A stretch of DNA of 58,488 bases from an uncultured Gemmatimonadota bacterium (GTDB lineage: Bacteria; Blakebacterota; Blakebacteria; Blakebacterales; Blakebacteraceae): assembly GCA_964576115.1 (NCBI GenBank), contig CAZNUA010000022.1, forward strand, positions 1 through 58,488, read 5' to 3'. Both the position numbers and the translations under genes were made by a program. How positions within the stretch are numbered: the stretch's first letter is position 1; the number at the start of each line of letters is the position of its first letter. The notes under the pieces are model-generated. The model made no database searches. It saw only the letters and a list, made by a program, of their open reading frames with translations, and had not been told where the DNA came from. Shown here one piece after another: positions 7,139-27,454 of the stretch.

Positions 7139-8065
7139 CTACTGTCCGCGCATGGTCTCGAGCAGGAAAGCGATGTCCTCCGCCGTCATCCGTCGGGCCG
7201 CGGCCTTCATCACCTCGCCGAACCAGGCGATCTCCCAGTCGGCGACGGGGAAACCGACGTTGCGCTCCTCCTCGTTGAAGCAGTCTGCCACGACTGAACC
7301 GTCAGGATCGAGCACATAGAAAACAGGGATCCCGCCGTAGTCTCCGGCGTACCGCTGCTTGACTTCCATCCCCCCGACGGTCCGTGCCTGATCGATCTCG
7401 AGCACGATCAGGTCCTTGTCGATCACCGGGGCGACATCCTCACGTGCAAGCCAGGCTTCCAGCCGGCCGCACCAGCCTCACGTCGGCGCCCCGAAGGTCA
7501 GGAAGAGACGTTTATCCTCCCGCCCGGCCCGGTCGAGAGCGTTGGCCAGCAGCGCCTCGGCCTCCGGGTAGGGGGCCTGATGGGTTTCGAGGAAATCCAG
7601 AACCAGGGCTGGATCGTGGTGATCCCCCTCTTCGAGCGAGCCGGTATCCTGGTTGGCCAGCACACTTCCGTCAGCGGCAAGTACGGTCAGGTAAGGCACT
7701 CCGCTGCCCTGGATGTCGGCCCCGTAGCGTTCCACCAGGTCGAGGTGCTTGTCCCAGCGGCCGATGTCCACGGTTACAACCTCGTACTCGTAGAGAATTT
7801 TGCGGGCGATCGTACGATCGGTCCGGAACAGGTCGTGCAGTTTGATACACCAGCCGCACCAGTTCCCACCCCACTGGATAAGCACCCGTTTGTTCTTGCG
7901 GGCCGCAACAGCGAGCGCGGCGGCGATATCGGCTCCGGCATCGGCCGCCTCATCGTAGACCGGCAGCCGCTCGGGCGATGAGTCCTGCTGGGCCGTCAGA
8001 CCGGTCGGGCAGGCCAGAACCAGGGTGACGAGGGTCAGAATGGATACACGGACAGAGTGGTACAC
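7139..8065 (-). CDS. Exported tandem-thioredoxin protein, probable selenoprotein (CGWC domain + UGWC domain)
   Basis: Track ORFs 7478..8149 and 7139..7426 are in the same frame and separated only by TGA 7478-7480. Read-through gives FLTFGAPT-U-GWCGRLEAWL, aligning with domain 1 LIQWGGNW-C-GWCIKL. GTG start at 8065 after GGGAG; signal peptide; cis-Pro-like motifs GVP and GIP. Confidence 0.85.
7444..7472 (-). promoter_or_regulatory. Candidate bacterial SECIS element
   Basis: After the UGA: GUGC-GGCC-GGCU-[GGA]-AGCC-U-GGCU-U-GCAC hairpin. The apical loop starts with G 18 nt after the UGA. Confidence 0.65.
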
Positions 8066-10904: not shown

Positions 10905-12056
10905 TCATTGCAGGTTCGCCAGGTAGATCAGGGTACGTTCGGGCCACACCCGGATCCGCTCATGGCTGGTATTGTAGCCGAAGACCGGCTGTTCCATCAG
11001 GTAGTATGTGCCCTCATGCCAGGTCAGCGCCCGGACCGGGTAGTTGGCCGCAATCCGCCGCACGATCCGACCCGAGTCGGGATCGATCCAGGCGATCGCC
11101 TCGCGTCCGGCCACAACCAGGTACTCGCCGTCGAAGGTCAGCCCCCCGTAGCCGGTCTCCTCGGGCTCGAGCTCGCGCACGATCCGGCCCGTCACGGGAT
11201 CGACGGCGCTGATTTTCCGGCTGTGCAGTACCCAGAGCAGCCCCCCGGCCCAGGTGATGGCATGGGCACCGTAGTAGCGGTTGACCTTCATCTCCTCGGT
11301 CACGATCTCGCGTACCACTCGCCCCGAAGCCGGATCGATCACGAAGGTCGGCAGGCCCGCCGTCCAGCCGTACTGCATGGCATAGAGCCGGCGCCCGTCG
11401 GTGGCCAGACCCCGTACCGAGGAGGTCCCCACCGTCTCGGCCAGATCCAGGCTGTCCCGGACAGCCCAGCTCTCCCGATCGATCCGGTAGAGGGTGCCGG
11501 TCTGAGCCACCCAGAGATCGGGGCCGAGCACAACCAGGGCCGAGGGCACTTTCTCCGACGGCGCCGGCCGGGTTCGGATCGTCCCCGAATCCACGATCCG
11601 GTCGGGACGGGGATCAGGGACATCCCAGGCTTCTCCCTGCCGATACAGATCATAGCGGCGCCGGATTTCCTCGAGCCGCTCCAGGAACGGCCCGGGACGC
11701 TCATACCCGCTCCAGCGGTACACTTTCTCACGCTCGTCGCCGATGGCGATCAGGCTGGGCCAGGCGCTGACATTGAAGTAGCGGGCGACATCGGGGATGG
11801 AGTCCCGATCGACAGTGACCCAGTGGAACCGGCGCGAAGTCGCCGCGACCGCGGCGTCACTGAAGGTGGAATCCTCCAGCACGGTGCACCAGCTTCACCC
11901 GTGGTAGGTGAAGTAGAGCAGGACCGGCCGGCTGTCACGTTGCGAGCGGCTCATCGCCGCCTCGACACTCTCCTCCCAGACGATCTCGCGGGCACTGCAG
12001 GCCAGAGCGGTCAGTGCGATCGCTCCCAGAGCCAGTGTGCGTGAGGTTTTGCACAT
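10905..12056 (-). CDS. Lipoprotein with thioredoxin-like domain (U-S-W-C) fused to a beta-propeller; probable selenoprotein
   Basis: Track ORFs 11895..12260 and 10905..11882 are in frame across TGA 11895-11897: RPVLLYFTYHG-U-SWCTVLEDSTFSDAAV...FHWVTVDRD...FNVSAWPS. ATG at 12056; lipobox LAC; propeller repeats GLATDGRRLY, AITWAGGLLW, GLTFDGEYLV, ALTWHEGTYY. Confidence 0.82.
11855..11883 (-). promoter_or_regulatory. Candidate SECIS hairpin for the second UGA
   Basis: After the UGA: CGU-GCUGGAGG-[AUUCCA]-CCUUCAGU-G-ACG, or the alternative short stem UGGA-[GGAU]-UCCA with loop G at +21. Less canonical than the first candidate. Confidence 0.4.
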
Positions 12057-12187
12057 ATCCCCTGCATCCTTCCTGCTGCGCACTCCCTGGTCCGCCGCCC
12101 GAACTTTCCGGGTGGCGACCTCCGGTTCCGATAGTAGGCGATCAGCCGGCACCCTGTATATTTGGAAAGAATCAGGGAGATGCCGCC

Positions 12188-26347: not shown

Positions 26348-27454
26348 TCACGTCCGGCGGTTGTGCCACTGCCGGAGCAGTTCGACCTCCCGTTCGGCCC
26401 TCAAACCCCTTTGCAGACGGGTCTGCTCCGACTCGGGCCGGGTGTGGTGCCACGCCAGGGTCTCCCGGGCGGTGACGGCGAGAGGCCGGTAGGTGATACC
26501 GGTCTCAGCGATGCGGCTCAGATCGAAGCGGTTGAAACCCCTGGTGGTATCGGTCACGGGCATCCAGAGCGGCATGTCGGTATAGGCCCGCACCCCCCGC
26601 TCGAGCAGGAAGTCGGTCTCGACCCAGGTAAAACCGGCCGAAGACCCGATTCCGGCCTGAATACCGTCGAGCAGACCCCGGAAATCGAGCGGTTCGGCGG
26701 GACCCAGACCCATGTAGACGCCCCGCACGCCCTGCTCGAGCAGGCGGATGTACCACTCGGAGAGGTCACGGGCATCGATGAACATGACCGGAGTCGCCGG
26801 ATCTCCCGGGGCCAGAACCTCTCCGCCGCGTTCCAGACGTACCGGCCAGTATGTGAACCGGTCGCTGCGGTCCCGGGGCCCCACAATCAGCCCGGGTCTG
26901 ACGATGAGGTGGTTGTCGGGAAAATATGCCAGGACCTCTTTTTCGGCCGTGGCCTTCTGCAGCCCGTAGTGCATGTCCCCCTCGTCCGCCTCGGTCCATT
27001 CCCCCTCGAATTCGTAGACCGGCGCATCGAGGGCCGTCATCCCGATCCGGCTCAGATCGGAGATGGTCGAACGGGTCGAAGTGAAGAGATAGACCCCGAC
27101 CGAATCCCGCAGCAGAGCCGCCGAACGATGCACCCAGCTCGGATAGGTGGCCGAATTGTCGATCACGGCGTCCCACTCCCGGCCTTCGAGGGCACTGAGA
27201 TCATCCCGCCGATCCCCGACGAGTTTCTCCACCTCGGGAAAGAGCTGCGGATTGGTATGGCCCCGGTTGAAGAGGGTGATCTCGTGCCCCCGGGCCAGGG
27301 CGTATTCGACCTGGGGCGGGCCGATGAAGCTGGTGCCCCCCAGGATGAGGATCTTCAGCGGGCGCGGCGAAGCGGTACAGCCCGTCACTGTGAAAGCCAG
27401 TGAAGCGGCGGCACAGGAGGAAGTCTGCAGGAAGTCACGGCGGGTGGGAGACAT
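26348..27454 (-). CDS. NAD-dependent epimerase/dehydratase (atypical SDR) with Tat signal
   Basis: TRRDFL twin-arginine leader; ILILGGTSFIG Rossmann motif; YGLQK; RPGLIVGP; DRFTYWP; IDARDL. Confidence 0.88.
   Translation of the reverse strand: MSPTRRDFLQTSSCAAASLAFTVTGCTASPRPLKILILGGTSFIGPPQVEYALARGHEITLFNRGHTNPQLFPEVEKLVGDRRDDLSALEGREWDAVIDNSATYPSWVHRSAALLRDSVGVYLFTSTRSTISDLSRIGMTALDAPVYEFEGEWTEADEGDMHYGLQKATAEKEVLAYFPDNHLIVRPGLIVGPRDRSDRFTYWPVRLERGGEVLAPGDPATPVMFIDARDLSEWYIRLLEQGVRGVYMGLGPAEPLDFRGLLDGIQAGIGSSAGFTWVETDFLLERGVRAYTDMPLWMPVTDTTRGFNRFDLSRIAETGITYRPLAVTARETLAWHHTRPESEQTRLQRGLRAEREVELLRQWHNRRT

Follow-up and report, generated by a model that had tools for sequence, protein, structure and literature searches.

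The stretch of DNA analysed here (the window, 58,488 nucleotides) contains a gene of 383 codons plus a stop on the minus strand at 12056..10905, in which codon 54 is an in-frame TGA (11895..11897); homologues align with it across residues 1–383. All further features of the gene lie on the same strand, which an earlier, sequence-only reading of this DNA had left unstated. The sequence reads MCK...ALAC20-S...RPVLLYFTYHG-TGA-SWCTVLE..., with the TGA where that reading had placed it. Translation with table 11 gives 53 residues, the TGA and then 329 residues. With the TGA read as U, the product is a single 383-residue protein with the motif U54-S-W-C57, in which codon 54 encodes the predicted selenocysteine at position 1 and Cys57 (11886..11888) is the putative resolving cysteine. 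The frame stays open for 329 codons past codon 54, through the cis-Pro motif A-W-P and into a propeller, as had been proposed, and closes at a second TGA (10907-10905).

A purine-rich, ribosome-binding-site-like stretch precedes the ATG (12057..12074) and may act in initiation. It is followed by a predicted signal peptide (11997..12056), whose residues 1–19 form, as judged by eye, a hydrophobic leader ending in a lipobox-like A-L-A-C20; residues 2–19 are helical in the structure model. The putative lipoprotein leader described earlier is present in this protein, but its Cys20 is kept only among relatives from this genome's own family, most other members having a leader without a lipobox Cys. 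The downstream open reading frame, which starts at GTG 11882, lacks a signal peptide of its own, as claimed, and no purine-rich site precedes it. Internal restart at this codon (GTG59) was rejected for want of a ribosome site. In public runs, two assembled contigs cover the gene (depths 35 and 30), and neither differs from it at the TGA; the two may, however, represent the source of this DNA and so are not independent. No RNA data set is listed among the public runs that contain the gene.

Residues of about 24–139 (11640..11987) form a thioredoxin-fold domain that is Trx7/DsbH-like. Pfam thioredoxin-like matches above cut-off cover residues 24–126 (PF03190, E 2.4e-12; PF13899, E 5.6e-8; PF13098, E 4.7e-6, the last only just above its cut-off) and continue across the TGA, and structure matches to this domain include 2lst (Z 15.2) and 3f9u (Z 15.0). 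The domain combines the thioredoxin fold, a (C/U)xxC motif at the start of a helix and a cis-Pro loop. Pro100 (11757..11759), whose cis geometry is predicted from the family, is kept in 34 of 35 and 17 of 17 rows of two alignments. A conserved linker, W144-D145-x-P-x-P-R150-P (11583..11639), in which W144, D145 and R150 are invariant over 35 rows, leads to a five-bladed β-propeller with a glutaminyl-cyclase-like fold at residues of about 159–381 (10914..11582). The full-length structure prediction that the sequence-only reading had suggested, an AlphaFold2 model from 17 sequences (pLDDT 92, pTM 0.81), contains both parts: the strand count gives the thioredoxin domain at 24–139, the linker and then 20 strands, equivalent to five blades, the fifth of which contains an inserted hairpin. 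The two scores suggest a fixed arrangement of the domains. At the profile level, Pfam gave a weak PQQ_2 propeller signal over residues 158–333, and neither Pfam nor NCBIfam has a model that matches the protein over its full length. The best structure matches to the propeller are the glutaminyl cyclases 3mbr (Z 23.2, rmsd 2.2 Å over 201 residues) and 3nok (Z 22.8), together with YjiK (Z 21.1). The three most conserved, family-specific propeller segments (residues 229–236, 253–263 and 355–375) correspond to b–c and d–a loops; in propellers, loops of these two kinds share one face.

Genes for NfeD, SPFH and HGSNAT-like proteins and for a tandem thioredoxin selenoprotein lie downstream on the same strand, and a PLP enzyme and a GNAT-like gene lie upstream. 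This order is kept only in the gene's own lineage (5–8 of 39 loci) and no neighbour is common across phyla, so the context gives no substrate. The first domain of the tandem thioredoxin (8065-7139, minus strand) carries C-G-W-C and the second U-G-W-C, with the TGA at 7480-7478; the TGA occurs in five genomes, and two full-length matches have no stop. The SECIS candidate of this gene, with its GGA loop 17 nt away, is weak, and similar folding is seen in a Cys homologue.

The codon-54 column and the selenocysteine machinery

Homologous DNA was found at 47 loci, which gave 43 distinct 72-mers after four duplicates were dropped. At the codon-54 column, 40 of these 43 stretches have TGA and three have TGC or TGT, while TAA, TAG and TGG occur in none; one further TGA paralogue was found beyond this set. 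In an earlier set of 45 loci (identities 36–78%), the 41 that cover the column comprised 39 with TGA and two with TGC, the other four being left out. At the ends of these genes, in contrast, all three stop codons (TGA, TAG and TAA) are in use. All five full-length relatives in nine other genomes of the phylum have one in-frame TGA, in the same column, which argues that the codon is not there by chance. Cys57 is present at every TGA locus of the 45-locus set except one (L083), where a second TGA takes its place.

Among other full-length proteins, 13 of 16 have Cys at column 54 and three have lost the motif. The homologue alignment proposed in the sequence-only reading has therefore yielded Cys/Sec pairs, including full-length CxxC homologues, and agrees with its assignment of the TGA to the N-terminal Cys. 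That reading had regarded separate genes, or a non-Cys residue at this column, as evidence against a selenoprotein. Non-Cys residues do occur, in the three proteins and in a further homologue without the motif (L159), but none of these is a split gene. L159, P0074, P0083, P0115, P0124 and P0184 all keep both domains without a Cys motif; among such homologues, two have long N-terminal extensions, one of which contains a DnaJ domain. Judging by their sequences, this minority appears to reflect redox-dead variants rather than split genes. Retention of both domains in homologues that have no CxxC means that the scaffold does not serve redox chemistry alone.

Genome scans contributed 10 loci and metagenome scans 33, under record titles naming Gemmatimonadota, Ca. 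Zixiibacteriota, Planctomycetota and Terriglobia. A scan of 400 Planctomycetota and 300 Acidobacteriota genomes added only a few members, which indicates that the family is sparse. In protein databases, members are with few exceptions entered in truncated form, under the name 'hypothetical protein' or 'glutamine cyclotransferase'. A word-indexed search returned 35 family matches, the query's own reading frame included, of which one covers the motif and the others start after it; the piece upstream of the TGA was found as a separate 53-residue entry (P0203). A tandem duplicate in a Terriglobia genome (L048, L158 and L160) has the TGA and the distal hairpin described below in both copies.

The genome itself (3.96 Mb, 64% GC, 94% complete) encodes SelA, SelB and SelD above NCBIfam cut-offs and a tRNA-Sec, so that the machinery on which the sequence-only reading depended is present. 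SelB is above cut-off in all nine other TGA-form genomes tested and also in G063, the one Cys-form genome tested. The SelD protein (L009, on C45) has Cys rather than Sec and is fused behind a cysteine-desulfurase/Sec-lyase-like domain. The DsbD transmembrane domain is present, and DsbB was not found in this 94% complete genome. TGA closes 645 of 967 long coding-like reading frames, and global reassignment of UGA was rejected because TGA is the main stop. A crude scan of the genome picked up additional genes that combine a Cys-type motif with an in-frame TGA. Four of them, predicted selenoprotein genes, have a GGUC-loop hairpin 17–27 nt downstream; from their motifs we take these four to be two HdrA-like proteins, a peroxiredoxin and a UxxS redoxin.

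Selenocysteine read-through is supported by the Cys/Sec pairs, the complete machinery, the fold and the conserved SECIS-like hairpin. On this sequence evidence, the internal stop almost certainly encodes the active-site selenocysteine of an exported thioredoxin–propeller protein that gene callers have cut short. The sequence-only proposal of a Sec-thioredoxin and a propeller in one protein is borne out, and we likewise infer the substrate-binding role that it gave to the propeller.

A distal and a proximal hairpin downstream of the TGA

The best SECIS candidate is a distal hairpin, P2 (11841..11856), with a 6-bp stem and a GGUC loop starting 44 nt after the UGA. It occupies positions +39..+54 and has a folding energy of -10.8 kcal/mol. 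Folding of the 50 nt after the UGA, as proposed in the sequence-only reading, takes in most of this element, whose end lies beyond that range. Its ranking of this SECIS below the one at 7478 is reversed, P2 comparing with no G-loop hairpin that reaches -4 kcal/mol there.

Across 35 TGA sequences, 95.2% of the 210 cells of P2 are paired, a value reached by none of 500 shuffles, and controls slid along the alignment gave 20–80%. RNAalifold keeps P2 as the sole helix. Two-sided changes occur at two of its six pairs in the 35-row alignment and come from L083 and L084; an equal score was reached by 13 of 500 shuffles, and the aligned rows are related to one another. Two further two-sided changes, with different amino acids, are seen in L096. 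One pair is G-U in 22 of the 35 rows, which points to an element acting as RNA, and the alternative of a DNA palindrome or operator is unlikely in view of these sense-strand G-U pairs. The absence of A-C at pair 46-53 is, alone, not significant. The five fourfold-degenerate third positions within P2 (codons 68–72) are 90–100% conserved, compared with a gene mean of 59% and 68% in the best other window; this comparison covers 167 columns in 31 sequences, with eight near-duplicate, broken or paralogous TGA loci left out.

We also applied a simple hairpin rule (stem of at least 4 bp, GGU in the loop, -3 kcal/mol or better). By this rule, 36 of 40 TGA sequences have the distal hairpin only, three have a proximal hairpin only, at 19–24 nt, and one combines a strong proximal with a weak distal hairpin; neither type is found in the TGY sequences, which provide only three Cys-form DNA controls. 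As background, the rule fires after 2–3% of the 3745 Cys codons of the genome, and at exactly 44 nt in eight cases. A looser pattern, UxxC followed by a distal GGUC hairpin, occurred in 281 of 401 genomes, mostly by chance, and was discarded as uninformative. On a quick, poorly resolved tree, from which two short rows and five near-duplicates were excluded, proximal-type sequences sit in three places. Two of the four are sister sequences and group among distal-type sequences with a strong hairpin in either position; a third, L076, may be a broken gene, with a TAG in frame further downstream. The swap between distal and proximal positions therefore rests on two or three events.

The proximal hairpin, P1 (11859..11880, 8 bp), varies in register and loop among homologues and is read here as a spacer fold. 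In the window it has an 8-bp stem and a G-first 8-nt loop at 21 nt, with -6.8 kcal/mol as an isolated helix. Proximal hairpins were initially favoured as the conserved SECIS from five close relatives; this was dropped when 35 TGA sequences gave 50% pairing in either register and no conserved loop. Any G-loop hairpin within 16–37 nt is found in 22 of 40 TGA sequences at -3 kcal/mol or better and in eight at -7.5. Both hairpins reach -3 kcal/mol in 20 of 40, and five TGA sequences have no G-loop proximal hairpin, yet P2 is present in them. Relative to synonymous shuffles, the spacer folds with a mean z of -1.45 (42 sequences), compared with +0.2 for the three TGY sequences.

P2 agrees with canonical bacterial SECIS elements in its 4-nt loop, 6-bp stem, G-G-U loop start and location in the coding region. 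It lies within the bSECIS ranges for loop (3–9 nt), stem (4–16 bp), G in the first two loop positions and energy (-7.5 kcal/mol or lower), but its loop, at 44 nt, is outside the 16–37 nt from UGA to apical loop. P1 is within that distance range, but at -6.8 kcal/mol as an isolated helix and without conservation. The published bSECIS model gives 16–37 nt and notes exceptions (PMC13188914), and another report places the loop at about 20 nt (PMC4605307). In that report, a SelB–ribosome model spans about 57 Å and has a flexible hinge (PMC4605307); a folded P1 would bring P2 within the reach of SelB. Rfam, at the gathering threshold, gave no match in the window. Going by the conservation pattern, the SECIS is probably P2, beyond the standard bacterial distance, and P1 may contribute, or may even be the binding site in some members.

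One member, L083, has the motif U-H-W-U, with TGA at both motif positions (408-419) in this single sequence. Its distal hairpin lies 44 nt from the first TGA and 35 nt from the second, and may serve both.

Relation to known protein families

Listed Sec-thioredoxin families likewise have Sec in place of the N-terminal Cys, Cys homologues and the SelB pathway. What sets the present protein apart is the fused five-bladed propeller, which is listed for none of the 119 selenoprotein families in Table 1 of a 2026 review; that table contains no thioredoxin–propeller family. Our search of the open-access literature found no description of such a family or of a bacterial SECIS at 44 nt. The architecture, which the sequence-only reading did not recognise among selenoproteins, is thus absent from that list, but the pairing of thioredoxin and propeller is known from NHLRC2 and SOQ1. 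The Trx7/PDZ selenoprotein has the motif CxxU, whereas here the motif is UxxC with a SECIS candidate at 44 nt, and its model (NF041199, cut-off 300 bits) gave no match. Matches to TsoB (NF045694, 27.5 of 805 bits) and DsbH (NF043050, 24.8 of 190 bits) fell under the curated cut-offs.

The best Pfam match, PF03190 (Thioredox_DsbH, 47.6 bits), is that of YyaL/SSP411-type proteins (3ira, 7tkv), which share a C-H-W-C type motif and the helix that follows it. Those proteins, however, are about 670 residues long, their second domain is not a propeller, and those compared have Cys codons. Their second domain is a helical glycosidase-like toroid.

NHLRC2 and SOQ1 likewise have a thioredoxin-like domain followed by a β-propeller. 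They differ in having six NHL blades and a CC(I/V)NC (CCINC) motif, whereas the present protein has five cyclase-like blades and U-x-W-C. SOQ1 further has a C-terminal domain with Msr activity, which is absent here, and its structure ranks 45th among the structure matches (Z 13.4). Membership in this group was rejected on blade number, motif and the lack of an NHL Pfam match for this protein. In an ESM Atlas search with a Cys homologue, the nearest clusters were redoxin+NHL proteins (0.80–0.81), which we treat as leads only. For NHLRC2, one study describes a conserved cleft between thioredoxin and propeller that holds the Cys motif (PMC6107167), and for SOQ1, a preprint describes a thioredoxin domain feeding the separate C-terminal Msr domain (bioRxiv 10.1101/2024.11.01.621559).

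Glutaminyl cyclases (3mbr, 3nok, 3nol, 2iwa; PF05096) share the five-bladed propeller. The cyclase segments TQGL, FGEG and NELE, which are the catalytic and metal-binding motifs of these enzymes, align with PSAL, VRGL and YGGL here, at 17% identity, in a profile alignment that is weak (probability 88%) and unsure in register. No acid occupies the position of the FGEG glutamate in either register, residues 215–217 being R-G-L. Alignment with a real cyclase from another genome puts W231, which is invariant in the family, at the Trp of the LTW motif. Assignment to the cyclases was rejected, as the acidic motifs are absent and this protein has no PF05096 match.

These comparisons describe a real, uncatalogued selenoprotein family that spans several phyla, works like UxxC thioredoxin selenoproteins and is built like NHLRC2 and SOQ1. 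BSepDB, NCBI records or supplements may hold members under a generic thioredoxin or 'thiol:disulfide interchange protein' name.

Proposed mechanism and alternative explanations

In the most far-reaching reading, to which we give a probability of about 0.65, bacterial selenocysteine insertion would have a second working geometry. A GGUC hairpin 44 nt from the UGA would act across a looped-out spacer hairpin, the signal having shifted within a range of about +19 to +44 nt where constraints on the protein left room, and the product would be an undescribed envelope redox enzyme made of a Sec-thioredoxin and a repurposed glutaminyl-cyclase propeller. In the mechanism that we favour, the ribosome would read UGA54 as selenocysteine via SelB and Sec-tRNA, a step that the comparative evidence leaves in very little doubt. 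SelB would bind the GGUC-loop hairpin 44 nt downstream while the spacer, at 11–38 nt, folds into its own variable hairpin and pulls the loop towards the mRNA entry channel; binding across a folded spacer seems likely to us. The leader suggests that the product would then be exported and, in this lineage, lipid-anchored at Cys20. Read-through, P2 as the SECIS and export with a lipid anchor are together nearly as likely as the SelB step on its own. In the envelope, Sec54 would attack an oxidised substrate, such as a disulfide or oxidised Cys in an envelope protein, a peptide or a small thiol, after which Cys57 would resolve the bond and the DsbD of the genome would re-reduce the enzyme. The propeller, held rigid by the conserved linker, would capture the substrate with the three conserved loops on its one face. 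This cycle, drawn by analogy with DsbD-fed thioredoxins and with NHLRC2 and SOQ1, is one towards which we lean only slightly.

A selenoprotein whose SECIS is P1, with P2 as an auxiliary hairpin that raises read-through by pausing the ribosome or stabilising the mRNA, is unlikely but deserves the most weight among the alternatives. P1 folds in most TGA sequences, as the shift in mean z relative to TGY reflects; its G-first loop in the window is at 21 nt, in keeping with the published 16–37 nt (PMC13188914) and with the other published figure of about 20 nt (PMC4605307), and half of the TGA sequences have both hairpins. Against this, P1 is only 50% paired and its loop is not conserved, and P2 is retained in the five sequences that lack a G-loop proximal hairpin. 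In addition, a proximal GGU loop appears only where P2 is lost or weak, and the loop of P2 is the same GGUC as in the four canonical SECIS candidates of the genome.

Two further alternatives concern the protein and the codon. The propeller might itself be catalytic, glutaminyl-cyclase-like or lactonase-like, in which case the Sec-thioredoxin would serve it as a redox switch or for maintenance. Its best fold matches are bacterial glutaminyl cyclases (Z 22.8–23.2, compared with 16 for most unrelated matches and 21.1 for YjiK), W231 matches the cyclase Trp, the conserved E355, Q356, H365 and R342 could be catalytic, and redox-dead homologues retain the propeller. We nevertheless consider this improbable: the cyclase motifs are not kept at 17% identity, with no acid at the FGEG glutamate, and retention of Sec in about 40 lineages would suit a catalytic better than a regulatory selenol. 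Least credible, and very improbable, is that the TGA is a true stop, leaving a split gene or pseudogene with a 34-residue lipopeptide and a cytoplasmic propeller, or that another code reads UGA as Trp or Gly. Databases do list the two pieces separately, and some loci look broken: L051 and L082 end prematurely, the alignment of L069 stops at residue 85, and L076 has its TAG. The break, however, falls inside a thioredoxin active site and is TGA, never TAA or TAG, in 40 stretches, which their record titles assign to at least three phyla. The column aligns with Cys rather than Trp or Gly, UGA is not globally reassigned, the downstream frame has neither leader nor ribosome site, and a Sec-specific hairpin tracks the TGA.

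The distal SECIS candidate with its natural position swaps is the more surprising part of the finding and lends itself to direct testing. The BSepDB report gives a canonical SECIS for 87.4% of 57,630 entries and calls the rest uncharacterised (PMC13326102), and the deep-Sep report states that bSECISearch missed 13% (PMC12013277). If the far-reaching reading is true, distal elements could explain some of the catalogued bacterial selenoprotein genes (12.6%) that lack a canonical SECIS. The family offers a concrete non-canonical candidate with natural controls: distal, proximal, both and Cys-only. If SelB works from 44 nt, SECIS search windows should widen, and recombinant selenoproteins could place the hairpin 13–18 codons away, sparing the residues next to Sec.

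Several homologues carry added domains. In the set L064, P0101, P0085, P0091, P0073, P0065 and P0096, these comprise GDSL plus α/β-hydrolase, S9 peptidase-like and FGE-sulfatase domains, and some tails have no Pfam match, two of which presumably resemble ExbD/TolR. Further in-frame TGA candidates in the genome lie on C40 at 21084 (+), C58 at 13111 (+), C1 at 75472 (-), C13 at 4949 (+), C66 at 13532 (-) and C23 at 36460 and 41877 (+). We take these to be, in that order, a fibronectin-like protein with a UxxS redoxin, an exported UxxC thioredoxin with repeats, a large UxxC redoxin with no clear hairpin, a DsrE-like UxxC protein, a peroxiredoxin and two HdrA-like CxxU proteins. An FG-GAP-like repeat lipoprotein on C36 (25837-26946, minus strand; TGA at 26529) contains H-P-S-TGA-C with a GUU-loop hairpin at 20 nt and is a possible further selenoprotein. 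Upstream of one family member, at L089:174, an exported thioredoxin-like reading frame has an in-frame TGA after Cys (H-D-C-TGA-P), and is possibly a CU selenoprotein.
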